Shown here piece by piece: positions 2,193-61,842 of a stretch of DNA of 64,000 nt. Position 1 is the stretch's first letter, and every line of letters starts with the position of its first letter. Source of the DNA: Candidatus Limnocylindrales bacterium (GTDB taxonomy: Bacteria; Chloroflexota; Limnocylindria; Limnocylindrales; CSP1-4); assembly GCA_050010635.1 (NCBI GenBank), contig JBEKKR010000008.1, forward strand, positions 56,378 through 120,377. Reading direction: 5' to 3'. The notes beneath the pieces are model-generated. The model saw only the letters and a list, made by a program, of their open reading frames with translations. It had not been told where the DNA came from and searched no databases. The translations under genes and the position numbers were made by a program.

Positions 2193-3662
2193 ATGACAGT
2201 CAAGAACAAGGTCCAGCTGATCACCTACCCTGATTCACTCGGAGGCTCGCTGAAGGGCCTCGATGAGGCTCTGTCGCGCTTCTTTCCGGCTCTGTTCCAG
2301 GGCGGGATCCACATCCTGCCGCCGTTTCCGTCGTCGGGCGACCGAGGCTTTGCTCCGTTGACCTACCTGGAGATCGATCCGGCCTTCGGTACTTGGGATG
2401 ACATTCGACGGCTGGGCGAGCGATACGACATCTTGCTGGACCTCATGGTCAACCACATCTCCAGCAAGTCGCCATTCTTCGTCGACTTCCTGACGAACGG
2501 GCGCGCGTCGGAGTGGGCTGACCTCTTCATCACGCTTGACAAGTACTGGCCGGGCGGCCAACCGGCTCAACAGGACGTCGACAGGATGTTCCTGCGCAGA
2601 CAGCGGCCGTACTCCACGTTCAAGGTGGGTGCCGCCGGGATCGACGAGAAGATCTGGACGACCTTCGGCAAGACGGACCCATCTGAGCAGATCGATCTGG
2701 ATTGGAAGTCGCCCTTGTTCAAGGGCCTGGTTGCCGCCTTCATTGACAACTTCTCGCGTCAGGGCGTGAAGATCGTCAGGCTCGACGCTGTCGGATACCT
2801 GATCAAGAAACTTGGGACAAGCTGTTTCTTCGTCGAGCCCGAGATCTACGAATTCATGGACTGGATCAGCGCGATGGCCTCCACGAAGGGCATCACGCTC
2901 TTGCCGGAGGTTCATGCGCAGCCGGCAATCCAGAGTCGCCTCTCGCAGCATGGCTACTGGACCTACGACTTCATCCTGCCGTACACGATCCTCGAAGCGC
3001 TGATCATTCGGTCTCCGATACGTCTCCGGCCGTACCTGCTGTCGAGATCCGCCAAGCAGTTCACGATGCTCGACTGCCATGACGGAGTCCCGGTGAAGCC
3101 CGACATGGATGGGCTGTACGCGCCCGAGGACGTTCGTTGCCTGGTCCAGACATGCCTGGATCGCGGCGCGAACCTTAGCCTGGTTGTGTCACCCGAACAT
3201 CAGGACCCGGATGGCTTCGATGTCCACCAGATCAGAGGTACCTACTACTCACTGTTGGGTTGCGACGACGACGCCTACATCGCCGCCCGCGCCATTCAGT
3301 TCTTCGTGCCGGGCGTACCACAGGTCTACTACGTCGGTCTCCTTGCCGGACAGAACGACGTAGAGGCCGTCGCCCGCAGCGGCGAAGGCCGAGAGATCAA
3401 TCGGCACAACTACGGCGCTGACGAGATCGAGGCAGCAGTCAGAACGGATGTCGTACGGCGTCTCGACTGGCTCATCCGCCTTCGAAACCAGCATCCGGCG
3501 TTTGACGGGGAATTCCGAGTACTCGATTCCGACGCCGGCAGGCTGCGTCTCGCCTGGTCGAAGGATGGCGATAGCTGCGCTCTGGACGTCGATTTCGTCT
3601 CAATGAGCTCCAGCGTCGAGTCCATGGACGCGCTGGGGCACGTGCAGCGTGTCAGTCTCTAG
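2193..3662 (+). CDS. GH13 sucrose phosphorylase-family glycoside phosphorylase (possibly glucosylglycerate phosphorylase)
   Basis: 489 aa; N-terminus LITYPDSLGGSLKGL...ILPPFPSSGDRGFAP...LDLMVNHIS matches sucrose phosphorylase (GH13_18). Confidence 0.75.
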   Translation: MTVKNKVQLITYPDSLGGSLKGLDEALSRFFPALFQGGIHILPPFPSSGDRGFAPLTYLEIDPAFGTWDDIRRLGERYDILLDLMVNHISSKSPFFVDFLTNGRASEWADLFITLDKYWPGGQPAQQDVDRMFLRRQRPYSTFKVGAAGIDEKIWTTFGKTDPSEQIDLDWKSPLFKGLVAAFIDNFSRQGVKIVRLDAVGYLIKKLGTSCFFVEPEIYEFMDWISAMASTKGITLLPEVHAQPAIQSRLSQHGYWTYDFILPYTILEALIIRSPIRLRPYLLSRSAKQFTMLDCHDGVPVKPDMDGLYAPEDVRCLVQTCLDRGANLSLVVSPEHQDPDGFDVHQIRGTYYSLLGCDDDAYIAARAIQFFVPGVPQVYYVGLLAGQNDVEAVARSGEGREINRHNYGADEIEAAVRTDVVRRLDWLIRLRNQHPAFDGEFRVLDSDAGRLRLAWSKDGDSCALDVDFVSMSSSVESMDALGHVQRVSL

Positions 3663-3671
3663 ATTGGTCTG

Positions 3672-4640
3672 TCAGCTGTTCAGCGAATCGATCGTCTGGC
3701 GCAGGACGTCGGCGGACTTGCGGACACCCCGGGCCTCGTGCGGGCTGAGGTCCAGCCGGAGGACGCGCTCGATGCCGCGCCGGCTGACCACCGTCGGCAG
3801 GCTCAGGCAGACGTCGTCGATGCCGTAGTAGTCCGTGATCAGGCTCGAGATCGACAGGACCGTGTTCTGGTCGCGCAGGATCGCCTCGGCGATGCGCATC
3901 AGGCCGGCGGCGACGGCGTAGTAGGTGGAGCCCTTCCGGGTGATGATCTCGTAGGCCGCGTCGCGCGTCTGGCGGAAGATCCGTTCCATCGTGTCGGCGC
4001 CGAGGGCGATGCCGTTCTCCGCGCAGAAGGTGGGCAGGCGCATGCCCGCCACGTTGGCGAGCGACCAGACGGGCACTTCGCTGTCGCCGTGCTCGCCGAT
4101 GATGTAGGCGTGGACGCTGCGCGGGTCCACGCCGAGGTGCTCGCTCAGCATGTAGCGGAAGCGAGCCGTATCGAGGATCGTGCCCGATCCAAATACGCGA
4201 CTCGCCGGCAGCCCGGCCAGGTCCAGCGTCACGTACGTCAGGACGTCGACCGGGTTGGTGGCGACGACGATGATCCCCTCGGGGTTGGCCTCCGCGATCC
4301 GCGGCACGATCTGGGCGAAGATCGCCGCGTTCCGCCGCACCAGCTCGAGGCGAGTCTCGCCGGGGCGCTGTCCGACGCCGGCGGCGATGACCGTGATCGC
4401 GGCGCCCTGGCAGTCGGAGTATTCGCCGGCGCAGATCTTCGTCGGATGGGCGAACGGAACGGCGTGGTTGAGGTCCATCGCCTCGCCCTCGGCGCGCTCC
4501 TTGTTGGCGTCGACCAGCACTATCTCCGAGGCGATCCCGGAGAGAAGCAGCGTGTAGGCGAAGGTTGAGCCGACCATGCCGGTGCCTACGATCGCGACCT
4601 TCGTCGGCCGGCCCGTCTGGTAGTCGGGCTCGCGGGCCAT
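3672..4640 (-). CDS. ldh: L-lactate dehydrogenase
   Basis: KVAIVGTGMVGSTFAY Rossmann motif; catalytic region IGEHGDSEVPVWS; start taken at MAREPDY (ATG at 4638-4640). The ORF is open up to 4904 but the extra N-terminus is low-complexity. An alternative ATG lies near 4730. Confidence 0.85.
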   Translation of the reverse strand: MAREPDYQTGRPTKVAIVGTGMVGSTFAYTLLLSGIASEIVLVDANKERAEGEAMDLNHAVPFAHPTKICAGEYSDCQGAAITVIAAGVGQRPGETRLELVRRNAAIFAQIVPRIAEANPEGIIVVATNPVDVLTYVTLDLAGLPASRVFGSGTILDTARFRYMLSEHLGVDPRSVHAYIIGEHGDSEVPVWSLANVAGMRLPTFCAENGIALGADTMERIFRQTRDAAYEIITRKGSTYYAVAAGLMRIAEAILRDQNTVLSISSLITDYYGIDDVCLSLPTVVSRRGIERVLRLDLSPHEARGVRKSADVLRQTIDSLNS

Positions 4641-5051
4641 CGACGGCTCACCGGTCGGGCGACGGCGGTGGGCCGCACTCTTCCTGGGTTCGCCGGCAGG
4701 GGCTTCGGTGGGAGAGTCGGTCTCGCTCATGGACTCATCGTGACACGACAGGATGCCTTGCGCCAGCCGGGGCGCCGATGCGGCTCGAGTCCCCGGCGGA
4801 TCACGACCCACCGGCTGCTCGTTCGCCTCGGGTCGACCCACGTTCCGACCGGCGATCGACCTCGGTTTGGTTCTCGGGGTCGAATTCCGGGCCGGGTCCG
4901 GCACCTGCCGAAGCCACTCTGTCCAGGCGCTACAATCCGGCCACGCCGTCGCCCGCGGCAGGCGACGAGCAAGACGGAGTCTGGTACTGCTTCCGCGATG
5001 GCCGGCCGGTGGCCGCGCCCTTCACCCGGCCTGGCACGAGGTAGATCGCAC

Positions 5052-5195
5052 ATGCCGGCTACCAGTCCCACCGATCGGTCGGTCGGTGACCGCCTGGTCT
5101 TTCTGGGCCACTTGACCGTCCTCGTCGAGATGGCGGGGACGCGGCTCCTCACGGACCAGGTCCTGCTGCCTGACCGCGGTGTCGCGGCCGCGTAG
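5052..5195 (+). pseudogene. Possible remnant of an MBL-fold hydrolase N-terminus
   Basis: DRLVFLGHLTVLVEMAGTRLLTD matches the conserved first beta-strands of metallo-beta-lactamase-fold proteins, but the ORF terminates after about 45 aa; no continuation in any frame. Confidence 0.3.
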
Positions 5196-6579
5196 GGGGA
5201 GCGGCGCAGGGCGGGCCAACCCTGCGACTCGCTCGCTGGCCCCAACCGCCGCCCAGGACGGTCCACGCGTCGATCCAGCCCGGCCACCGGATCCGACGAT
5301 CGCAGAGGTGGGGCGCGAGCGCAATCCGCTCAAGCGCGCGCTGCTGGTCATGGGCCCTGGCGTGATAACGGGCGCTTCCGACGACGACCCCTCCGGCATA
5401 GGAACGTATGCGCAAGCTGGAGCCAGCTACGGCTACGCCACGCTGTGGACCGTCGTCCTCATGCTGCCTATGGTCACCACGGTCCAGTACATCTCGGCCA
5501 AGGTCGGGCTCGTAAGCGGTCGCGGCCTGGCCGGAGTGCTCCGCCAGTACTATCCGCGCTGGGTGCTGTATCCGGCCATACTGGCACTCGTGGTCGCCAA
5601 TACCCTGAACGCAGGGGCCGACATCGGGGCCATCGCAGCCGCCCTGAACCTGCTCCTGCCGGTGCCCGCGATGGCGTTCATCGTGCCCATCGGCGCGGCC
5701 ATCGTGGCAGTCCAGGTGCTGGGCTCCTACCATCTCATCGCCCGCGTCTTCAAATGGCTGGCTTTGGCGTTGCTGGCCTATCTGGCCGCTGCGCTGTTCA
5801 CCCGCCCCAACGTTGGCTCCGTGCTCACCGGCAGTTTCGTGCCGACCATTCGGCTGGATCCGCAGTACATCGGCATCCTGGTGGCGCTGCTCGGCACGAC
5901 GATCTCGCCGTACCTCTTCTTCTGGCAGGCCAGCCAGGAGGTGGACGAAGAGAGGCAGATGGGTCGTAAGTGGCTCTGGCAACGGCAGGGCGCAAGCCGC
6001 ACGGAACTCCGCTACGCCCTGTGGGACACGATGGCCGGCATGGTCTTGTGTGAGGTCGTGGCCTACTCCATCATCCTCACCGCCGGAGCGACCCTGTTCG
6101 CCGCGAACAACCACGACATCACGTCGGCGGCCGAGGCGGCCGAGGGATTGCGACCGCTCGCGGGCGAGTGGTGCACGGCGCTGCTGGCGGTTGGGCTGAT
6201 CGGTACGGGCGTGCTGGCGGTTCCGATTCTGACCGGCTCCGCGGCCTACGGAGTGGCAGAAGCGTTCGGCTGGTCGTCGGGCCTCGACTCCCGTCCGTCG
6301 CGGGCACCGCAGTTCTACGCGGTCATCGCGGCAGCCACGGCCATCGGGATGGGCATCAACTTCGTGGGCCTGAACCCGATCGCAGTCCTGGTGATAACGG
6401 CGGTAATCAACGGCCTGCTCGCGGCTCCGCTCCTGGTCGTGTTGATGCTCGTGTCGAACGACCGCAAGGTGATGGGCGAGCGCGTCAACGGTCGCCTGGT
6501 GAACGTGATCGGCTGCGTGACCGCCGTCGTCTTGTCCGCGGCGGCGGTCGGCCTGATCGTCACCACCCTTCTGGGCTGA
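5179..6579 (+). CDS. mntH: NRAMP-family divalent metal (Mn2+/Fe2+) transporter
   Basis: LLVMGPGVITGASDDDPSGIGTYAQAGASYGY resembles the E. coli MntH N-terminus; multiple TM segments; start uncertain (alternative GTG near 5308). Confidence 0.8.
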   Translation: MSRPRRGSGAGRANPATRSLAPTAAQDGPRVDPARPPDPTIAEVGRERNPLKRALLVMGPGVITGASDDDPSGIGTYAQAGASYGYATLWTVVLMLPMVTTVQYISAKVGLVSGRGLAGVLRQYYPRWVLYPAILALVVANTLNAGADIGAIAAALNLLLPVPAMAFIVPIGAAIVAVQVLGSYHLIARVFKWLALALLAYLAAALFTRPNVGSVLTGSFVPTIRLDPQYIGILVALLGTTISPYLFFWQASQEVDEERQMGRKWLWQRQGASRTELRYALWDTMAGMVLCEVVAYSIILTAGATLFAANNHDITSAAEAAEGLRPLAGEWCTALLAVGLIGTGVLAVPILTGSAAYGVAEAFGWSSGLDSRPSRAPQFYAVIAAATAIGMGINFVGLNPIAVLVITAVINGLLAAPLLVVLMLVSNDRKVMGERVNGRLVNVIGCVTAVVLSAAAVGLIVTTLLG

Positions 6580-6619
6580 GTTGCGCGACTGGCTGGTATG
6601 ACGCGCGGCACCGGATGGG

Positions 6620-7417
6620 CTATCCCTTGGCCTTGCCCAGCTCCGTGATGACGGTCCGGAACGGCTCGGCGTAGCCGGTGAAGCCGGCGAAGAGCCGCCA
6701 GACCTCCTCCGGCGGGCGGCCCGATTTGAGCATCCCCGCGCTCCAGGACTTGGCGTTGGCGTTTGCGCGCGGTCCGAAGCAGCCGTAGCAGCCGCGGGAG
6801 TAGGTGGGGCAAAGGGCGTTGCAGCCGGACGTGGTCACTGGACCCATGCACGCATCGCCGGCGGCCACGACGATGCAGACGATGCCCTTGCGCTTGCATT
6901 CTCGGCAGACGGCCTCGTCGCGGATCTGGGGCCGGCGGCCGACCAGGACCGAGGTGAGCAGCTCGGCGAGCTGGCCGCCGTCTATCGGACAACCCCGCAG
7001 CTCCGCGTCAACCTTGATGTGATCGGAGACGGGCGTGGCCATTGCCAGCGACTCGATCCACTCCGGGTGCTCGTAGATGGCCGCCCGGAAGGCGTCGTGG
7101 TCGGCCCAGTTGCGGAGGGCCTGGATCCCGCCGGACGTGGCGCAGGCCCCGATGGTGACGAGGATGCGGGCCTGCTTGCGCAGCTCCTTGATGGCGTCGA
7201 TGTGCTCCGGGGCGCTGACGGACCCCTCGACGAAGACGATGTCGTAAGGGCCGGGCGACCGGCGCGAGGTGGCCTCGGGGAACTCGACGATGTCGAAGCG
7301 CGAGACGATCTCCAGCAGCTGGTCCTCGAGGTCCAGCAGCGTCAGCTGGCACCCGTCGCACGACGCGAACTTGACGACGGCGACGCGCGGTCGAGCGGTT
7401 CTGCCTGCGGTCGCCAT
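6620..7417 (-). CDS. [NiFe]-hydrogenase small subunit-like Fe-S protein (group 3b HyhS/HydD-like, NuoB/Oxidored_q6 family)
   Basis: N-terminal CDGCQ; GACATSGG; RGCPID; distal cluster motifs CRECKRKGIVC, CMGPVTTSGCNALCP, CYGCFG; collinear with Pyrococcus HydD. Start codon overlaps the stop of the upstream gene (TGATG). Confidence 0.75.
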   Translation of the reverse strand: MATAGRTARPRVAVVKFASCDGCQLTLLDLEDQLLEIVSRFDIVEFPEATSRRSPGPYDIVFVEGSVSAPEHIDAIKELRKQARILVTIGACATSGGIQALRNWADHDAFRAAIYEHPEWIESLAMATPVSDHIKVDAELRGCPIDGGQLAELLTSVLVGRRPQIRDEAVCRECKRKGIVCIVVAAGDACMGPVTTSGCNALCPTYSRGCYGCFGPRANANAKSWSAGMLKSGRPPEEVWRLFAGFTGYAEPFRTVITELGKAKG

Positions 7418-9393
7418 CAGATTCCCTCTCGATTGAACATGTCGCCGAGCTCGTCGAGCCGGAAAACGGGGCCGTCCTTGCACACGAACCGACCGGCCAT
7501 CTGGCAGTGGCCGCACAGGCCGATGCCGCACTCCATGTGGCGCTCCATCGAGACGCAGATCCGATCGGCGGGAACGCCCTTGGAGATCAGGCCCTGGACC
7601 GACGACTGCATCATCCGCTCGGGTCCCACGACGAAGGCCGTGACCTTGGAGCAGTCCCACGAGATCATGTCGAAGAGCGTCGTGACCACGCCGACGCGGC
7701 CCTTCCACTCGGGCCCGGCGCGATCCACCGTGACGGCCACGTCGATGGCCTTGCTGGCGCTCCACGCCGCCAGGTCGTCGCGGAACAGCTGGTCCTCCGG
7801 CGTCCGCGAGCCGTAGAAGAGCGAGACCGACTCGAAGCGTTCGTGGTTCGCGACGAGCGCGTCGACCAGGCCGTGCAGCGGCGACAGACCGACGCCGCCG
7901 GCGACCACCACGGCATGCCGGCCATACGCTTCCTCAATCGGCCAGAAGGTCCCGAGCGGACCTCGCAGCCCGACCTTCGCCCCGGGATGGAGATTGACCA
8001 GGGCGGTCGATGTGGGGCCGACGGCCCGGATCGTCAGGTCTATGTGGTCGGCTCGGAAGCGCGAGATGGAAATCGGCACGCCCGGGAAGGCCGGCAGGGC
8101 GACCATCACGAACTGGCCCGGCCGGCCTGACAGGAAGGCCGGATCGAGGTCCGTCAATGACAGGGTCGTCGTGTCCTCGGTCTCGGCCCGGACCGAGCCC
8201 AGGCGGGCCACCGAGTAGGTGCCGGGGCTGGCGGCAACGGGCGTCACGGCCACGGGATGGACGACCGGCGGGATCGGCGGCGCGATGGCCGCCAGCTCTT
8301 CGCGGACGTCTATGCGGACCGGGCACCAGGCGATGCAGCGACCGCAGCCGACGCAGCCCGAGCTCTCGAACTGGTCCCACCAGGTCGAGAACTTGTGGGT
8401 CAGCCACTGGCGGTAGCGGTCGCGCGGCCGGGCCCGGAAGTCGCCGCCGGCGACCTTGGCGAAGGCCACGTCGAAGCACGAGTCCCACTGCCGCTCGGTC
8501 GAGCTCGTCTTGCCGTCCAGGTCCGACCTCTCGACGACCGACGTGCAGAAGCACGTGGGGCAGGCCATGGTGCAGTTGCCGCATTCGACGCAGCGGTCCG
8601 CGACCTGGATCCAGCGCGGGTGGTCCAGTTGCAGCTTGAGGCGCTCCCCGATGCCGGCCATCGGCAGCGGCTCGCCCATCTGCGTCCGCACCGACTCGAC
8701 GTTGTCCACCGCGGCGCCGGCCTCGGCGTGCGAGGGGCGGCGCGTCGGAAGCTTGGCGACGATCGCGGCTCCGCCCGGCGATCCGGCCTGGATGACGAAG
8801 CCGTCCTCGATCTCGGTGAGCATGATGTCGTAGCCGTCCCGGACCTCCGGTCCGGTCCCCATCGAGGTGCAGAAGCACGTGCTGGACGACGTGGTGCACT
8901 GGACCGCGACGATGAAGGCGGCGGCGCGCCTGGCCCGGTAATCCTCGTCGGTAAACTGGCTGCCGAGGAAGACTCGATCCTGTATAGCCAGGGCCGCTAT
9001 CTCGCAGGCGCGGACGCCCAGGAAGGCCACCGGCGGCGCCTCGGCCACCTGTTGCTCGAAGCCGAACGAGGTGCGATGGGCGGTCGCGATCGTCAGGTTG
9101 GGCGGGAAGGTGAACCGTTTCCAGGAAGTGGGCCCGACCGTGTAGCCGAAGACCTGGTCATCGCTGCGCCGTTCCAACCGATAGCGTCCGGCGCTCTGCT
9201 CGTCTCGCCAGCCGGCCGGAAGGTCGGCCGCCGTCTGGATCTCGTCGTAGACGATGGCGCTTTCGCGGATCGTGGGCCCGATGACACGCCGGCCGGTCGC
9301 TCGAATGGCCTGGATGAGCTCGTCGAGGTCCTGGCGCGCCAGGAACCACTGCCGGGCCGGGGCCGTCTGGCTGGGGGCAGGGCTGGTGATCAC
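7417..9393 (-). CDS. Fused Fe-S/flavin oxidoreductase: N-terminal 4Fe-4S dicluster domain (HyhB/AsrA-like) plus C-terminal FAD/NAD(P)-binding domain with 2Fe-2S site (HyhG/AsrB/PyrK-like)
   Basis: CVECGNCTMACPTCFC and CVGCGRCIAWCP ferredoxin motifs; C-terminal half with AVVVAGGVGLSP and CGIGLCGHCQMAGRFVC. Confidence 0.75.
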   Translation of the reverse strand: MITSPAPSQTAPARQWFLARQDLDELIQAIRATGRRVIGPTIRESAIVYDEIQTAADLPAGWRDEQSAGRYRLERRSDDQVFGYTVGPTSWKRFTFPPNLTIATAHRTSFGFEQQVAEAPPVAFLGVRACEIAALAIQDRVFLGSQFTDEDYRARRAAAFIVAVQCTTSSSTCFCTSMGTGPEVRDGYDIMLTEIEDGFVIQAGSPGGAAIVAKLPTRRPSHAEAGAAVDNVESVRTQMGEPLPMAGIGERLKLQLDHPRWIQVADRCVECGNCTMACPTCFCTSVVERSDLDGKTSSTERQWDSCFDVAFAKVAGGDFRARPRDRYRQWLTHKFSTWWDQFESSGCVGCGRCIAWCPVRIDVREELAAIAPPIPPVVHPVAVTPVAASPGTYSVARLGSVRAETEDTTTLSLTDLDPAFLSGRPGQFVMVALPAFPGVPISISRFRADHIDLTIRAVGPTSTALVNLHPGAKVGLRGPLGTFWPIEEAYGRHAVVVAGGVGLSPLHGLVDALVANHERFESVSLFYGSRTPEDQLFRDDLAAWSASKAIDVAVTVDRAGPEWKGRVGVVTTLFDMISWDCSKVTAFVVGPERMMQSSVQGLISKGVPADRICVSMERHMECGIGLCGHCQMAGRFVCKDGPVFRLDELGDMFNREGI

Positions 9394-9442
9394 GATTCCG
9401 GCGACCTCCTGGAAGGGCGGCTGGCGGCTGAACGAGGGAGCC

Positions 9443-9949
9443 TCAGCGAGCGAACAGATCCAGAAGCTGCAGCCGGGTTGCCCGGAGGCGTCGCGCTACA
9501 GCCTTGAGGACTCGAGGGTAGAGACTGGCCGCGAGAGCGTGGTCTTCCTTGAGGGCCGCTCGGAGCTTCGTGCCCTCGATGACCAGGGCCCGGCTCGGCT
9601 GAGTCGCCACCACCGTCGACTGGGCTTGCGTATCCGCCAGCACGGCGGACCAACCGAAGATGTCGCCCTGCTCGACGCTCAGGATCGTAACCGGTCCGCG
9701 TTCGGGAACCAGCGTCCGCAGCGCGAGCCGGCCGGAGATGAGAATGCCCATCTCCTTGGCGTCGTCGCCTTCGTGGAGGATCACCTCATCCGCCTCGAAG
9801 TCCTGCACTTCGCCGAGCTTGGCCAGGCGTTCCTGGGTCTCCGGCGAGAGCTCGGCTCCAAACCACGTGTGGTTGAGCATGGCGAGAACGGCGGCGTAAT
9901 CGTCCATTGCGCGAGCATGCATTTGAGGCTTTCGCGCGGGCAGTGCCAT
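9443..9949 (-). CDS. Stand-alone cyclic-nucleotide-binding domain protein (no HTH)
   Basis: cNMP-binding fold (ILHEGDDAKEMGILISGRLAL ... GDIFGWSAVL); 168 aa ending in a dimerisation-like helix; first gene of the module. Confidence 0.7.
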   Translation of the reverse strand: MALPARKPQMHARAMDDYAAVLAMLNHTWFGAELSPETQERLAKLGEVQDFEADEVILHEGDDAKEMGILISGRLALRTLVPERGPVTILSVEQGDIFGWSAVLADTQAQSTVVATQPSRALVIEGTKLRAALKEDHALAASLYPRVLKAVARRLRATRLQLLDLFAR

Positions 9950-10055
9950 CAGGTCGGCGGGGGCGGGCCATTCGGCCCCGTTGCCGCGCCGGGCTGCTCG
10001 CCGGGCGGCTTCGCCTTAGACTGCACGGAGTCTCCGCCAGCGGAGTTGTGAATCG

Positions 10056-11126
10056 ATGGAACCCAGTCGGCGGGTCGTCGCCGGTTTGAGTGGAGCGGCG
10101 CTCGTCCTGATCGGCGTCGGCATCGCCGCGCTGGTCTTCGACTCGGCCCTTTCCGGCAGCGGGGCCACGATCAGCCATGCCGGGACGACTCCACCGGGTC
10201 CGAGCTCGCCGCCGGTGTTGCCTTCGTCGACTCCTCCTTCGTCGCCGTCGTTTGGAGGCGGCTCGGGGACGCCCTCGCCGAACATCTCGAGTTCGCCCGC
10301 GGTCTCGGTCGGGCCGACGGCACACCCAGTCGGGTTCGCCCAGCAGGGCACCGGTTTCGTCTACTACGCCGCGGATGGAACGGTCATCCCCGTGATGCCC
10401 GTGCCCGGTTGCGAGATCCGGCTGGAGTACAGCAAGGCCGTGTACTACGCCCTCGCTTCGAACAAGTTTGGGCTCAAGACCGGCTCGTACGCCGGCGAAT
10501 TCAAGCCCCTGGTCACCATGGGCCAGGCCGATGGCTCGAGTGCCGAAACGGGCGGCATCGTCGTCGCCGGCCCGGTCGCCGCGAGGATGATCGCCGACAA
10601 GCTGGCCTCGATCCAGACGCCGGGGGACAGGTGGATTGTCGCCCTGCCGGTCGACATCCGGACGTCGGCCAGCCCCGTCTCCGTCTCGTTCGATCAATTC
10701 GGTCTGGCCGGCTGGTCGAATACGCCGCGCGTCATCGTAGCCTTCCCGGGCTCACTGCCTGTGGTGGAGATCAACCCGGCCAACGAAGGCTTCCACGTTC
10801 TGGTCGAAGGGTTGGGCGTCACCGCCTGGCAGGTCATCGACCCCAGGCGGCTGACCCTGGCCCCGGATGCCATCGACCCTGCGCACGCCATGAACCAGCT
10901 GCTGATCTACGGCAACGGGACGCCGACGATCCCGGGGCTGACGGGCCCGCCGCGCGACACGCTCTCCGATCGAAAGGCAAGCAACCCGTTCCCCGTCGGA
11001 CAGCTGATGCTATCGGCCACGACCGACGTCAGCGTCTCCCTGGTCGTGAAGGGGAGCCGCGCGGACCTGGGTCCGGACAAGATCCTGAGCGTCGGCGACG
11101 TCCCGGTCTTCGTGGGCCGGAACTAG
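10056..11126 (+). CDS. Hypothetical membrane-anchored/secreted protein with a Pro/Ser-rich linker
   Basis: N-terminal TM helix, then SSPPVLPSSTPPSSPSFGGGSGTP linker; coding-like composition; no recognisable family. Confidence 0.5.
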   Translation: MEPSRRVVAGLSGAALVLIGVGIAALVFDSALSGSGATISHAGTTPPGPSSPPVLPSSTPPSSPSFGGGSGTPSPNISSSPAVSVGPTAHPVGFAQQGTGFVYYAADGTVIPVMPVPGCEIRLEYSKAVYYALASNKFGLKTGSYAGEFKPLVTMGQADGSSAETGGIVVAGPVAARMIADKLASIQTPGDRWIVALPVDIRTSASPVSVSFDQFGLAGWSNTPRVIVAFPGSLPVVEINPANEGFHVLVEGLGVTAWQVIDPRRLTLAPDAIDPAHAMNQLLIYGNGTPTIPGLTGPPRDTLSDRKASNPFPVGQLMLSATTDVSVSLVVKGSRADLGPDKILSVGDVPVFVGRN

Positions 11127-11262
11127 CCGGCTCGAGCCCGGCGGAGGCTTTGTCCTACTGGAGAAGGGCGCCGGCGGCGCAAGGTTCAGCCTCCGGGATG
11201 ATCCCATCGTCGCGACCGGTGGCTAGACTGACCCCGGCGACAGTGAGGCAGCGAGGTGGGTC

Positions 11263-11904
11263 ATGAATGATCGATGGCAGCAACGCGGCGACCGCAGCGA
11301 CGACGACGCCAGGCGAGGTTCCCTCGTCGTCGGCCTGCTCCTGGTCCTGCTCGGCATCTTCTTCCTGGCGTCCGAGCAGTTGAGGTTCGACGTGGGCCGA
11401 GACGGCTGGCCGATCTTCGTGATCGCTCCCGGCGTCTTCCTCCTTCTCGTCGGACTTGCCATTCCCCACGAGGGCGGCCTCGGAGCGGCGATCCCGGGGG
11501 GGATCATCACGACCGTCGGGTTGATCCTCGCGGCACAAGCTGCCACCGACACTTATGCCAGCTGGGCCTACGCCTGGGCCCTCGTCGCGCCGGGATCGGT
11601 TGGGGCGACGCTGACGCTGTACGGGCTGCTCCATCGGCGCTGGGATCTGCTCGACGCCGGATTGCGGACGGCCGCTGTCGGGCTTGGGCTCTTCATCGGA
11701 TTCGGCCTCTTCTTCGAGAACGTCGTCGGCATCGACGAGGGCAGCCGGACCACGGCTCTCCGCAACGCCATGCCGGTCCTGGCCGTCGGCCTCGGCATCG
11801 TGATCGTGATCATGAACGTGTTGCCGCGGCGATCCCGTGAAGGTGGATACGCCTCGGACGCGTCGAACAGGACAGAGCCGCCCGCGCCTCCCGCCGCTGG
11901 CTGA
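11263..11904 (+). CDS. Hypothetical integral membrane protein
   Basis: Four or more hydrophobic segments; coding-like GC3. Confidence 0.5.
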   Translation: MNDRWQQRGDRSDDDARRGSLVVGLLLVLLGIFFLASEQLRFDVGRDGWPIFVIAPGVFLLLVGLAIPHEGGLGAAIPGGIITTVGLILAAQAATDTYASWAYAWALVAPGSVGATLTLYGLLHRRWDLLDAGLRTAAVGLGLFIGFGLFFENVVGIDEGSRTTALRNAMPVLAVGLGIVIVIMNVLPRRSREGGYASDASNRTEPPAPPAAG

Positions 11905-11914
11905 GCCGCGCCGG

Positions 11915-13207
11915 CTAGCGGACCTCGATCACCTTGTAGTCGAGCGTTCCGGCCGGGACCTGGACGCGAATCGTCTCGCCCGGATGCCGGCCGAGCAGCG
12001 CCTTGCCGATTGGCGAGGTGAAGCTGATCTTGCCGGCCGCGGCGTCGGCCTCGGCCGAGCCCACGATCGTGAAGATCTCCTCGCCGTGGCGGTCGGTCTC
12101 GATCACGACCGTCGAGCCAAGCACGACCTCGGTGCCGCCCTCTGAGCTGGCCTCGAACATGACCGCGTACTTGATCATCTGCTCGAGCTGCTGAACTCGG
12201 CCCTCGAGGAAGGACTGCTCCTTGCGCGCCGCCTCGTAGTCGGCGTTCTCGCTCAGGTCGCCGAGCTCGCGAGCGACCTTGATTCGTGAGATCACTTCGG
12301 GCCGGCGATGGTCGGTGAGCTCGGTGAGCTCGGCGTGGAGCGCGGCCAGGCCTTCGGCCGTCAGGTGGATCGGGGCAGAGGATGGGCCACCCTTGCCGCC
12401 CCGAGCGGTCTTCGACGAGCGCCGGACCACCGGCGTCTCGATGGCCGAGGGTCCGGTCGTCGCCGCGACAGGCTTGACCGTCTTGCGAGCCGCCGCCCTC
12501 GGGCGGCTTGGCTTTGCCAGCGAGGCGGGTCTGGTTGCTCGGGGACGGAACGAAGTTCTGCCCAGAGACGTATCCGGCTCGTACGCGTCGGGCAGATGGG
12601 TCACCTTCGTGACCTTCGCCGGAGCCGGTGTGGCCTCGTCGTGGAGGGCCGCTGTCAGTCCGTGCTCACGGCGCTGGCCGCCCGGCGTGATCAGGACGGC
12701 AAACGGCGTCGAGCCGGCGGTCTTGATGAAGATCTCGAGGAGCGTGTCCTCGTAGAGCTCCGGATCCGAAACGGGCGCCCACCAGATCCGGGCCTTGTTG
12801 AGGTCGTGGAGGGTCTTGAGCCAGTAACCGGTGGATTGCGGGCGCCGCTCGCCGAGCGGGGTCTTGTACATGCCGGCCAGTCGAGCCGCCACGGACTTCT
12901 GGCTCGAGCCGATGTAGAGGATCGCCTGGCCCGGAATCCAGAACGAGGCCAGGCGCGACTGCAGCTCCGCGACGGTCGGATGCTTGCCGTCGAGGAGCAG
13001 GCCCGGGACGCGGGTGAGCCAATCGCGGATGGCGTTCGGGTCGATCGACACCTTGGGCTGCGGCGCGGGCAGCTCCACAATGAAGACGCCCGGACCACTG
13101 CCCGAGACGGGCCTGCCCCAGAGTGTCGGTCCCTCGACGGGAAGCCCGTTGTCCCGCAGCAGGTCGCGGCCTGTGAGAAGGGGCGCTGGAGAGGATGAGG
13201 TCGTCAC
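11915..13207 (-). CDS. GreA-family transcription elongation factor fused to an about 270-aa N-terminal extension (unknown domain plus basic linker)
   Basis: C-terminal 155 aa are a complete GreA (coiled coil ...ELGDLSENADYEAARKEQSFLEGRV... plus FKBP-like ...EIFTIVGSAEAD...ISFTSPIGKALLG); N-terminal part has GVFIVELP ... ILYIGSSQKSVAARL (faintly GIY-YIG-like) and a K/R/P-rich linker. Confidence 0.7.
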   Translation of the reverse strand: MTTSSSPAPLLTGRDLLRDNGLPVEGPTLWGRPVSGSGPGVFIVELPAPQPKVSIDPNAIRDWLTRVPGLLLDGKHPTVAELQSRLASFWIPGQAILYIGSSQKSVAARLAGMYKTPLGERRPQSTGYWLKTLHDLNKARIWWAPVSDPELYEDTLLEIFIKTAGSTPFAVLITPGGQRREHGLTAALHDEATPAPAKVTKVTHLPDAYEPDTSLGRTSFRPRATRPASLAKPSRPRAAARKTVKPVAATTGPSAIETPVVRRSSKTARGGKGGPSSAPIHLTAEGLAALHAELTELTDHRRPEVISRIKVARELGDLSENADYEAARKEQSFLEGRVQQLEQMIKYAVMFEASSEGGTEVVLGSTVVIETDRHGEEIFTIVGSAEADAAAGKISFTSPIGKALLGRHPGETIRVQVPAGTLDYKVIEVR

Positions 13208-53094: not shown

Positions 53095-54600
53095 TTAGCT
53101 CTTCGCGGACGGATCGCCGATGCGGCCCATGAACAGGACGGCGCCCGTGGACTCCTCGCGGATGAAGTAGAGGAACGGCTTGTCCACGTGGAACTGCACG
53201 TGACGTGGCGTGGCCACCGGGCCGGCCGAGCCGGCCCTTATCGACACAGGGGTGACCGCGGCCGCGGTCACGCCCTGCTCCACCACGTCGATGTTGGCCT
53301 GGTGGATCACCTTGGCGACATACAGGCGCTCGACGGTAGTGATGCCCGAGAGATCGGCGCCGTTCCGGTCGAACAGCGTGGGCATGCCCATGGCCGCCAG
53401 CATGCTCGCCAGGTCGACGCGGGTCTCGGCGGAGAAGCGGGGCAGTGTCAGGTCCACGTCGTACTTCTCAGCCGCGAAGTCGATCGAGGCGAGCCCGGCC
53501 GCGGTGAGCCCGCTCACGAACGAGACCATGGAATCGGGAACGACGATCGTCATCGACAGCGAGGCGGAGCCCAGGGGCAGCACCACCGCCCTGTAGCCGG
53601 TCCCGGCCGAGTAGGACAGCGTCCGCTCCGCCGCCATCGTCGGAACCGAGACCTGGGACCCGTCGCCGCGCGTGAACGGCAGCGACTTCGTGGCGTTCGG
53701 ATCGAACTGGGTTTCCCAGGCTGCCTTGAGGTAGATCGCGTTCGCGAGGGCAAGGCGAGTCATGGTGTCGATATCGCCCGGCTGGAGGACCGCCGGGATG
53801 CGCCCCTTCGTCCGGTCACTGGCCCACTTGTTGATGATCTGGCGGGCGCCTTCGGGATCGTTCTTGTAGTCGAGCAGACCCAGCCCGGCCCCGAACCCGG
53901 AGCTCAGGGAGTCGAGGTAGGCCTGCTGCAGGCTCATGCCCTTCTGGGCAAAGGCGGCGTTTGAGACGTCGAGCTCGACTACCGGCTGCTTGCCGGTATG
54001 GTCCGGAGTGGCCGCAGGATCGTTCGAGCCCCAGCCGGAATCGTCGTACTCGGTCTGGGATTGGAGAGCCAGGATCAGGGCCACGATCTCGGCGGCCTGC
54101 CCGGTGGAACCGAAATCGTGCATGACCTTGTCCATCTCGGTCGCCGTGAGGCCCCGCGCGCCGGGCCGGACCATGGCCAGGGCGAGGGCGATGCTCGTGG
54201 GCGAAGCGCACAGGTTGCCCGTCGGGTCGAGCCGGCGGAGCAGGTCGAACCCGAAGTCGTTGATCTCGGTGCCGGCGAGGCGGCCGGCGTCAGCGGCCGG
54301 CGCAAGCAGCCCGGCCTTGCCCAGTGCGATCGCGAACTCGCCGCCCGGGTCCTGCGTCGTCAAGGGAGTGGGCCCCTCCGACGGCGACAGCGAAGGCGCC
54401 CCCGTGGGCGATGGCCAGGGCGTGGAGCTCGGCCAAACCGTGGTGGGGCCACTGTTCGCCGTGGGGGTTGCCGTCGCCGTGCCGCAGGCCCCTGCAACCA
54501 CGACCGCCATCAGCGCCGCTCCGGCGCCGCGGAGTCTCTTCTCGCCGCCGTGCCCCGGTGCCGGCAACAGGTTCCTCAGCCGCAGCCATCCCGCCAACAT
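53095..54600 (-). CDS. Serpin-family serine protease inhibitor with lipoprotein-type signal and low-complexity N-terminal linker
   Basis: Serpin core (NAIYLKAAWETQFDP ... reactive-centre-loop region GVTAAAVTPVSIRAGSA ... FHVDKPFLYFIRE); N-terminus ALMAVVVAGACG plus Pro/Ser/Thr-rich linker. Confidence 0.8.
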   Translation of the reverse strand: MLAGWLRLRNLLPAPGHGGEKRLRGAGAALMAVVVAGACGTATATPTANSGPTTVWPSSTPWPSPTGAPSLSPSEGPTPLTTQDPGGEFAIALGKAGLLAPAADAGRLAGTEINDFGFDLLRRLDPTGNLCASPTSIALALAMVRPGARGLTATEMDKVMHDFGSTGQAAEIVALILALQSQTEYDDSGWGSNDPAATPDHTGKQPVVELDVSNAAFAQKGMSLQQAYLDSLSSGFGAGLGLLDYKNDPEGARQIINKWASDRTKGRIPAVLQPGDIDTMTRLALANAIYLKAAWETQFDPNATKSLPFTRGDGSQVSVPTMAAERTLSYSAGTGYRAVVLPLGSASLSMTIVVPDSMVSFVSGLTAAGLASIDFAAEKYDVDLTLPRFSAETRVDLASMLAAMGMPTLFDRNGADLSGITTVERLYVAKVIHQANIDVVEQGVTAAAVTPVSIRAGSAGPVATPRHVQFHVDKPFLYFIREESTGAVLFMGRIGDPSAKS

Positions 54601-61395: not shown

Positions 61396-61842
61396 CTAGA
61401 CGGCCTGCACCCAACGAGTGAACTCTCGCTCCGTCCGTGGGCCAACAGGGGCGGCTACCCCTCGCTTGAAGTGAGTGCCGCCGAAGATGTGGACGTACCC
61501 GCCGAAATCCGAGGGCAGGTAGAAGTCGCCGTACTTCAGCATGGCAACTCGCGCCCTGCCAAAGCGTCCGCAGAAGTACCCGAACTCGAAAAGGACGTTC
61601 AGGTTCGGCACCTGGACTTCCTTCCCTCTGACGGTCGAATCGGATTCCGGCGTGAAGATCATCAGGACGGCATCGACCTTGTCGCCGATCGCATCGAGGT
61701 CCTCGAGCAGTGTGCGCCCGGGATCGAAGGCGTCCCACCAGGGCAGGAATCTGAGGGTGGGCCCCGAGAACTTCTGGATCACCGCGCGGGCCTGCGATTT
61801 GGCCGCCGAAGAGGACCCGATGAACACCGTCGTTTGAGGCAC
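61396..61842 (-). CDS. Stand-alone TIR-like nucleotide-binding protein (COG4271/PF10137-type)
   Basis: VFIGSS N-terminal strand, central LMIFTPESDS, and PNLNVLFEFGYFCGRFGRARVAMLKYGDFYLPSDFGGYVHIF matching the TIR_like signature (RxNVxfElGyfxGxlGrxrv...LPSDlxGv); about 60% GC against about 70% background. Confidence 0.6.
   Translation of the reverse strand: MPQTTVFIGSSSAAKSQARAVIQKFSGPTLRFLPWWDAFDPGRTLLEDLDAIGDKVDAVLMIFTPESDSTVRGKEVQVPNLNVLFEFGYFCGRFGRARVAMLKYGDFYLPSDFGGYVHIFGGTHFKRGVAAPVGPRTEREFTRWVQAV

Follow-up and report, generated by a model that had tools for sequence, protein, structure and literature searches.

We analysed a 64,000-nucleotide stretch of a Candidatus Limnocylindrales contig (JBEKKR010000008.1, positions 56,378 to 120,377; hereafter the window) in which the open reading frame (ORF) map places three coupled minus-strand genes at 6620-9949. 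They encode a protein with a cyclic nucleotide monophosphate (cNMP)-binding fold, a fusion of HyhB- and HyhG-like proteins (BG), and a HyhS-type [NiFe]-hydrogenase small subunit (S). The genes of this trio correspond to the electron-transfer part of an NAD(P)-coupled hydrogenase of group 3b, and the catalytic large subunit gene (hyhL) is missing from their neighborhood. The features of the locus are as follows.

9443-9949, minus strand: cNMP-fold protein; the first ATG gives 168 aa, and the ATG at 9907 of the public gene call gives 154 aa
9394-9442, minus strand: spacer of 49 nt between the cNMP and fusion genes; AGGAGG precedes the GTG start by 13 nt (direct read)
7417-9393, minus strand: whole BG fusion gene, 658 aa, with Fer4_22, NAD_binding_1, and DHODB_Fe-S_bind
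8284-9393, minus strand: HyhB/AsrA-like half of the fusion, residues ∼1-370 (Fer4_22, NCBIfam, PDB 9nez_B)
7417-8209, minus strand: HyhG/AsrB-like half of the fusion, residues ∼395-658 (NAD_binding_1, DHODB_Fe-S_bind, AsrB, PDB 9nez_C)
6620-7417, minus strand: HyhS-type small subunit, 265 aa, PF01058, with 12 invariant Cys
6580-6619, no strand: site of hyhL and the protease gene in complete operons, here 40 nt from the small-subunit stop to the convergent NRAMP gene
5308-6579, plus strand (opposite to the trio): NRAMP metal transporter (PF01566, E 6.5e-85)
3672-4730, minus strand: L-lactate/malate dehydrogenase-family gene (LDH) with Ldh_1_N and Ldh_1_C

The ORF map and domain searches bore out the three reading frames given in a preliminary description of this DNA, and its account of their tight coupling needed two small corrections. 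The TGATG overlap at 7417 is real, with the fusion TGA and the small-subunit ATG having one base in common (GGAATCTGATGGCG); this overlap places the small-subunit start at 7417 rather than 7420 (gene 6620-7417, 265 aa), and the spacer between the first two genes measures 49 nt, not 50. Going by the preserved start/stop coupling, the trio is predicted to be expressed as a translationally coupled unit, and a scan of the locus for promoters and terminators yielded no signal above chance. The flanks were also as described, with the NRAMP gene on one side and, on the other, a 356-aa protein that has an N-terminal hydrophobic segment and no Pfam match.

The small subunit matched PF01058 (E 5e-23), its best NCBIfam matches were ShyD/HydD (E 1e-44, under the equivalog cut-offs), and the delta-subunit structures of Pyrococcus furiosus sulfhydrogenase I (SHI; 9nez, 9e1j, and 9e15) matched it over its full length (E 2e-40). 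In agreement with this affiliation, which the preliminary description had wished to see checked, the protein fell inside the 3b clade defined by complete operons. By analogy with solved small subunits, C20, C23, C92, and C143 (265-aa numbering) were assigned to the proximal cluster and C171, C174, C181, C190, C199, C203, C210, and C213 to the medial and distal clusters. These 12 Cys, earlier reported as complete proximal, medial, and distal patterns, were all invariant in an alignment of 121 homologues (∼30 of the closest, mostly from loci without hyhL, and 90 more distant cluster representatives), and would be enough to ligate three [4Fe-4S] clusters.

The 658-aa fusion combines in one polypeptide both parts of a group 3b diaphorase, the HyhB Fe-S protein and the HyhG protein with flavin adenine dinucleotide (FAD), NAD(P), and [2Fe-2S] sites. 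Its best NCBIfam matches were AsrB/AsrA, the sulfhydrogenase subunits HydB/HydG, and ShyB/ShyC, all under the equivalog cut-offs. The HyhB half matched Fer4_22 (E 4e-30) and PDB 9nez_B (E 4.7e-44), with the HydB/ShyB/AsrA matches spanning residues 84-370, and it possesses 15 conserved Cys, of which C130, C166, C173, and C175 form one group and the others belong to two ferredoxin-type CxxCxxCxxxC motifs that include extra Cys. The HyhG half exhibits a ferredoxin-reductase fold for FAD and NAD(P) binding, with GGVGLSP at residue 499, and a C-terminal [2Fe-2S] site (C622, C627, C630, and C638), and it matched AsrB (E 2.9e-56) and PDB 9nez_C (E 7.8e-34). All 19 cofactor Cys of the fusion were invariant among 14 loci, and the predicted cofactors of the protein are FAD, one [2Fe-2S] cluster, and several [4Fe-4S] clusters, besides a predicted site for NAD(P)H. 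Another Cys of the fusion, Cys581 (window 7651-7653, SWDCSKV in the NAD-binding domain), was fixed in every hyhL-less locus examined and was Gly in nine of nine hyhL-containing Limnocylindria loci; it is the clearest substitution specific to the hyhL-less clade.

The first protein of the trio has a genuine cNMP_binding fold (PF00027, E 1.4e-15), and the preliminary description suggested that it might gate the oxidoreductase by binding a cyclic nucleotide such as cAMP or cGMP, a role with which the tight linkage of the gene in nearly all 3b operons would agree. In CRP and PKA-type domains, a Glu and an Arg of the phosphate-binding cassette hold the ribose and the cyclic phosphate. Alignment of this cassette with that of Escherichia coli CRP gave GDIFGWSAVLADTQAQST versus GDFIGELGLFEEGQERSA, with Glu72 replaced by Trp and Arg82 by Gln; the cassette is degenerate, with GW-S in place of GE and QST in place of RSA. 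The GW-S signature and the loss of the Arg (to Gln or another residue) were common to nearly all of ∼70 operon-linked homologues, and the Gly-Glu and Arg-Ser/Thr-Ala cassette of CRP/PKA-type sensors was found neither in the window protein nor in its 3b-linked homologues. Because the Glu and Arg are missing, canonical cyclic-nucleotide binding by this protein is unlikely, and we regard the gating of the oxidoreductase by cAMP or cGMP as improbable.

The cNMP-fold protein is also no special feature of this module, since a homologous gene sits within most of the complete bacterial and archaeal 3b operons surveyed. Such homologues include one in a Frankia 3b operon that has been described as a "small transcriptional regulator" (PMC11879354) and one in a Methylosinus 3b operon that has been described as HoxI-like (PMC12319191). 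HoxI is a dissociable subunit of HoxHYFUI2, the soluble hydrogenase (SH) of Cupriavidus necator (PMC3189943), and the passages on HoxI in PMC12319191 (citing Burgdorf 2005) and PMC3189943 describe it as an NADPH-related subunit, not as a cNMP sensor. Like the trio protein, HoxI (retrieved from pHG1) is a stand-alone cNMP fold of ∼165 aa in the operon of a soluble NAD(P)-linked hydrogenase (group 3d) and lacks the cassette Arg. The match between the two is weak (25% identity, E 8e-6), however; HoxI keeps GE where the 3b-linked proteins have GW-S, and it goes with a NuoEFG-type diaphorase rather than one of the HyhBG type. By this analogy, a HoxI-like accessory, possibly nucleotide-binding, subunit of the diaphorase would be the more plausible role for the trio protein.

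The window was searched for the missing hydrogenase genes by several means. Six-frame scans found neither the L1 (RxCGxCxxxH) or L5 (DPCxxCxxH) motifs of large subunits nor any Hyp or protease signatures. In tblastn searches of the window, three Limnocylindria 3b large subunits gave no match at E ≤ 1, and, among the maturation proteases used as queries, that of locus L089 (one of the relatives surveyed below) gave chance-level matches only (E 0.3-0.4) and the other two gave none. The group 3d HoxH of a relative had no match in the window at 1e-6, nor did C. necator HoxH, HoxW, and HypA/B/D/E/F at E ≤ 0.01. Pfam assignments for the window genes, which were taken from precomputed gene calls on a 215-kb contig (ENA ERZ4200889 NODE_63) and supplemented by our own scan of the uncovered stretch, included no hydrogenase, PF00374, or sulfite-reductase domains. 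With motif scans, 3b and 3d queries, and Pfam assignments all empty, the earlier statement that the window has no large-subunit ORF holds. Two components of a functional group 3b hydrogenase, the large subunit and the operon maturation endopeptidase, are absent from the window, and with neither at the locus the trio alone cannot be a hydrogenase.

About 170 related loci (numbered with the prefix L), obtained from context look-ups and two collection scans (genome and metagenome), were surveyed by tblastn; the counts of hyhL-less loci in both scans are lower bounds. The dominant 3b architecture in most bacteria and some archaea was B-(cNMP)-G-S-L, often followed by the protease gene. For example, the PGAP annotation of a plasmid operon of Rhodococcus qingshengii lists a 4Fe-4S protein, a cNMP-domain protein, a FAD/NAD(P)-binding protein, an "oxidoreductase", the Ni/Fe hydrogenase alpha subunit, and a maturation protease. 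Limnocylindria-type loci have the order cNMP-BGfusion-S-L-protease. Among the loci surveyed, the protease gene follows hyhL in L005, L087, L089, and L174. The gene order of the window, which had been described as biochemically uncharacterized, is the Limnocylindria 3b order ending after hyhS. Small subunits with 60-72% identity to that of the window were always followed by hyhL and the protease gene (L005, L008-L015, L087-L089, and L098-L110). All loci at 75-97% small-subunit identity were without both genes (the window, L002/L003, L004, L007, L090, L093-L096, and L177-L180), so that the trio without a large subunit is kept throughout a clade and is not a one-off. The named close homologues all came from Candidatus Limnocylindrales, Limnocylindria, or unclassified Chloroflexota.

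No remnants of hyhL or the protease gene were detected in the hyhL-less contigs by tblastn at E ≤ 1. In neighbor-joining trees of S and of BG plus S, the hyhL-less loci were monophyletic and nested inside the hyhL-containing Limnocylindria (100 of 100 bootstraps), a topology which implies that one old deletion removed hyhL and the protease gene together. Judging from these comparisons, the trio is what is left of a group 3b operon after the clean loss of hyhL and the maturation protease gene at its end; protein families, structures, trees, and complete relatives all support the earlier assignment of its products to the accessory part of such an NAD(P)-coupled hydrogenase. The window derives from a metagenome assembly (ERZ4200889 NODE_63), and a chimeric join or a binning error might have removed the large subunit artificially. 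Such an artefact is ruled out, to any practical degree, by the recurrence of the same junction-free arrangement in at least 10 independent ENA, JGI, and NCBI assemblies with diverged sequences and different downstream genes.

Similar, independent modules were found outside Limnocylindria. In Planctomycetaceae, L031 (7444-10768) contains cNMP-B-G-S and L025 (9108-10786) contains G-S only, both with intact ORFs; in this pair, dN/dS was 0.05 (S) and 0.12 (G), with dS at ∼0.75. An Acidimicrobiales metagenome-assembled genome (MAG) has an intact B-cNMP-G-S set followed by unrelated genes (L067, 1433-4680). In the metagenome set, the large subunit was present in every locus with usable downstream sequence save the hyhL-less Limnocylindria clade.

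Two further observations concern complete operons. A second, paralogous HyhBG fusion, ∼55% identical to the window BG, lies right after the protease gene in four loci (L005:10725-12728, L009:12787-14736, L098:5200-5643, and L104:5683-7632), which suggests two alternative diaphorase modules per hydrogenase. In addition, L175:7568-9142 and L176:6594-9142 are two assemblies of one complete 3b operon, but the cNMP gene is uncalled in L175 and the BG call is 524 rather than 679 aa; this upstream difference could stem from the assembly process or from variation between strains.

The LDH gene is the same-strand downstream neighbor of the trio in every hyhL-less locus that extends far enough; the synteny was detected by tblastn at 80-95% identity in L002, L004, L007, L093, L095, and L096, and it is also seen in L177. 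The interval between hyhS and LDH varies with lineage: it is empty in L002 and holds the NRAMP gene in the window, L093, and L096, a 683-aa membrane protein in L095, a 906-aa histidine kinase in L007, PEMT and a CLC channel in L004 and L090, and a Hox operon in L177-L180. A conserved replacement partner encoded downstream of hyhS was considered and rejected, because the interval genes differ by lineage and only LDH is constant. The NRAMP gene is a lineage-specific insert between hyhS and LDH and lies outside the module. A malic enzyme gene adjoins the complete operons of the sister clade, and the LDH and malic-enzyme neighbors are compatible with a possible contribution to NAD(P)H balance.

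The Hox operon belongs to one clade member (P0254; L177-L180, four assemblies) that has the same upstream synteny as the window, a small subunit ∼85% identical to that of the window, and a branching position at the base of the window's subclade in the BG plus S tree. A complete group 3d hoxEFUYH operon lies 206 bp downstream of hyhS, in the same orientation, and is followed by LDH (L177:11004-17479). Its genes occur in the order hoxE, hoxF, hoxU, hoxY, and hoxH; the hoxF product is a 1051-aa fusion in which NuoF-like domains are joined to an NAD(P)-binding module resembling GltD/Pyr_redox_2, and HoxH has intact L1 (RICGICPVSH) and L5 (DPCLSCASH) motifs. No maturation protease gene adjoins the Hox operon in L177-L180. 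The third-codon-position GC content (GC3) of the operon in L177, 0.88-0.90, equals that of its flanks, as does its GC content, and a recent horizontal insertion is accordingly unsupported; the operon was either ancestral there and subsequently lost or inserted in this lineage. Group 3d Hox and 3b operons also stand side by side in an Acetobacteraceae MAG (L062:547-6884 and 7601-12035) and on a Limnocylindria-type metagenome contig (L099:108-2758 and 3458-8129), so that the co-location appears to recur.

These operons bear on the possibility that the trio still serves a hydrogenase, with its large subunit and protease encoded elsewhere or with another large subunit, such as a 3d HoxH, acting in trans. 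A hoxEFUYH operon of native base composition, with an intact hoxH, directly downstream of hyhS in L177-L180, the adjacent 3b and 3d operons of L062 and L099, and the usual dependence of 3b operons on hyp genes located elsewhere (as in Frankia, PMC11879354) would all agree with such an arrangement. However, the Hox operon of L177 brings its own small subunit, HoxY, which leaves the 3b-type small subunit still without a cognate partner, and Hox genes were found neither in the window nor in any other hyhL-less locus. The large subunit gene lies directly downstream of hyhS in ∼150 surveyed loci, is displaced by 1-3 kb only in L023 and L029, and is close by on the opposite strand in L075, L134, and L137. 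The 64 kb of the window contain no large subunit, protease, or Hyp homologue. Among the best 120 3b large-subunit clusters, none had a longest contig of the same length as a long hyhL-less contig. A weaker point, drawn from the best 120 of 8000 matches, is that the two NCBI large subunits from Limnocylindrales that were compared come from different MAGs than the hyhL-less GCA_036392215.1. A candidate large subunit, P0237, first appeared from the lengths of the longest contigs (114,107 versus 114,106 bp) to be a contig-mate of the hyhL-less P0254 and was rejected, as it is located on a different contig in an ordinary complete operon. On this evidence, a large subunit supplied in trans seems rather unlikely to us.

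The conservation of the retained genes was examined by estimating dN/dS with the Nei-Gojobori method for pairs of hyhL-less and complete loci, with the following results; the more distant pairs are saturated (dS ∼0.5-0.9).

Window versus L093 (hyhL-less): S 0.05, BG 0.04, cNMP not available
Window versus L002 (hyhL-less): S 0.10, BG 0.13, cNMP 0.10
L004 versus L090 (hyhL-less): S 0.14, BG 0.21, cNMP 0.32
L005 versus L009 (complete): S 0.06, BG 0.13, cNMP 0.17
L010 versus L012 (complete): S 0.04, BG 0.12, cNMP 0.04
L087 versus L089 (complete): S 0.16, BG 0.20, cNMP 0.28

All three retained genes are under purifying selection comparable to that in complete operons, although the members of the hyhL-less clade have diverged to 75% (S), 72% (BG), and 62% (cNMP) identity. 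The clade retains 98 of the 100 columns that are ≥90% conserved across 3b small subunits; two columns were altered in all of its members (Leu to Phe and Ser to Ala), compared to 3-9 in control hyhL-containing clades. Per-site entropy revealed small-subunit variability above that of hyhL-containing relatives only at residues ∼182-220, which form the C-terminal part bearing the last eight Cys and not the N-terminal domain. Loss of the catalytic gene and the protease gene might still be viewed as a step in the decay of a hydrogenase operon, of which the trio would be a non-functional remnant; Frankia 3b operons have been patchily lost and pseudogenized (PMC11879354), and L025, with G and S only, resembles stepwise erosion. 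In contrast to this expectation, the ORFs are intact, the start/stop coupling is kept, all cofactor ligands are invariant across a diverged clade, and dN/dS values of 0.04-0.2 resemble those of complete operons; even the eroded-looking L025/L031 pair has its S dN/dS of 0.05. Selection together with intact ORFs and ligands makes a pseudogene explanation very unlikely.

Because the hyhL-less state is conserved and selected across the clade, the evidence favors a hydrogenase-independent Fe-S electron-transfer enzyme, one of the options raised in the preliminary description, shorn of its cyclic-nucleotide gating. We consider it somewhat probable that the trio encodes a hydrogenase-derived, soluble, NAD(P)H-linked flavin/Fe-S electron-transfer complex with no H2 turnover of its own. 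Complex formation, the direction of electron flow, and the acceptor are inferred as follows. The HoxI-like cNMP-fold protein, the HyhB-HyhG fusion, and HyhS would assemble into a soluble complex. By homology with SHI, AsrAB, and PyrK-type proteins, the electron path would begin in the G half, where NAD(P)H would reduce FAD. Electrons would then pass from FAD to the [2Fe-2S] cluster and on to the [4Fe-4S] clusters of the HyhB half, and would cross HyhS by way of its distal, medial, and proximal clusters in turn. They would exit on the side of HyhS that is usually turned toward the Ni-Fe site or, alternatively, at a site on the B half. Polysulfide or a similar small oxidant, or else a further redox protein, could take the place of the Ni-Fe site as acceptor.

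Several points weigh against this NAD(P)H-linked electron-transfer complex. All of the evidence is metagenomic sequence, the absence of the large subunit is established for the 64-kb window, and no acceptor or catalytic partner was identifiable in the neighborhood of the trio. The Hox operon of L177-L180 indicates that at least some clade members can be hydrogenase-competent. Loss of the large subunit would have freed the largest interface of HyhS, for which some relaxation might be expected, and none was seen in general: a general relaxation of the hyhL-less small subunit was rejected, with only the modest local rise at residues ∼182-220. The undiminished conservation in 98 of 100 family-wide columns would also be expected if a large subunit were still bound, and we count it in favor of an in-trans partner.

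Comparison with known systems places the trio closest to the group 3b enzymes (HyhBGSL, P. furiosus HydBGDA and ShyBCDA, and actinobacterial Hyh), with which it shares beta, gamma, and delta homologues in the same order. With P. furiosus SHI, which supplied the best PDB matches for each of the three redox domains, the similarity extends over full-length 9nez chains B, C, and A (E 4.7e-44, 7.8e-34, and 2e-40, respectively) and all Fe-S ligands are conserved; with bacterial operons such as that of R. qingshengii, the trio shares the cNMP-fold gene, and its nearest relatives at 60-72% identity are complete. It differs from group 3b elsewhere, beyond the two missing genes, in the fusion of B and G, a Limnocylindria-type trait, and in the position of the cNMP gene, which opens the operon instead of standing between B and G. 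A precedent for a beta/gamma module that feeds a catalytic partner other than a hydrogenase is the homologous AsrA/AsrB pair. The fusion halves match AsrA (E 3.5e-35) and AsrB (the best NCBIfam match), but the scores of 121.8 and 190.5 bits lie well under the respective equivalog cut-offs of 323.15 and 288.6; moreover, the window gene calls include no AsrC-type siroheme subunit, and Asr lacks the hydrogenase small subunit that the trio possesses. The reuse of hydrogenase electron-transfer modules for other redox chemistry or another partner is also seen in NuoB/NuoD of complex I, in Mbx/Mbs, in Ehr, and in hybrid [FeFe]/[NiFe] hydrogenases in which HyhS is fused to HydA (PMC11216029). These systems keep a large-subunit homologue, with or without the Ni-Fe ligands, and are membrane-bound or electron-bifurcating, whereas the trio locus encodes no such homologue and its products are predicted to be soluble. 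That a diaphorase can function by itself is illustrated by the isolated HoxFU of the C. necator SH, which is active alone (PMC3189943).

Other features of the window were noted in passing. Divergent from the trio are the genes of the 356-aa protein (10056-11126, plus strand) and a LiaF/LiaI-like membrane protein (11263-11904, plus strand), and this pair is kept beside the trio in the window's subclade (L002, L007, L095, and L177); L004 and L090 do not have it at this position. The gene at 11915-13207 (minus strand) encodes a 430-aa member of the GreA/GreB family, conserved in the relatives L002, L095, and L177, with its GreA domains at residues 281-429 only, preceded by an N-terminal extension of ∼280 residues without a Pfam match. 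At 53095-54600 on the minus strand lies a gene for a bacterial serpin (501 aa, PF00079), a family that is uncommon in bacteria. At ∼61396-61842 (minus strand), flanked by the gene of a 375-aa protein without a Pfam match, is that of a 148-aa protein whose CAP12-PCTIR_TIR domain belongs to the TIR type known from anti-phage signaling systems.

Among the papers retrieved by full-text searches, none described a hydrogenase small subunit that is retained in the absence of a large subunit. Genes of the hydB/hydG/hydD type, which are often read in metagenomes as evidence of H2 or sulfur metabolism, persist here under selection without a catalytic subunit, and such metabolic calls can therefore be wrong. 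Also little studied is the cNMP-fold protein with a degenerate site that is present in most of the bacterial and archaeal 3b operons surveyed. It is possible, and we propose it tentatively, that loss of the catalytic subunit has given rise to a new class of soluble, H2-independent NAD(P)H flavin/Fe-S oxidoreductases in which the exposed proximal cluster of the small subunit serves a new acceptor, and that this occurred independently in Limnocylindria, Planctomycetaceae, and Acidimicrobiales. If the module works alone, it would represent a natural repurposing of the electron-transfer arm of a hydrogenase, would bear on how complex I, Mbx, and Asr-type enzymes originated, and would suggest that a Chloroflexota lineage widespread in soil and freshwater carries out an as yet undescribed NAD(P)H-linked redox reaction.

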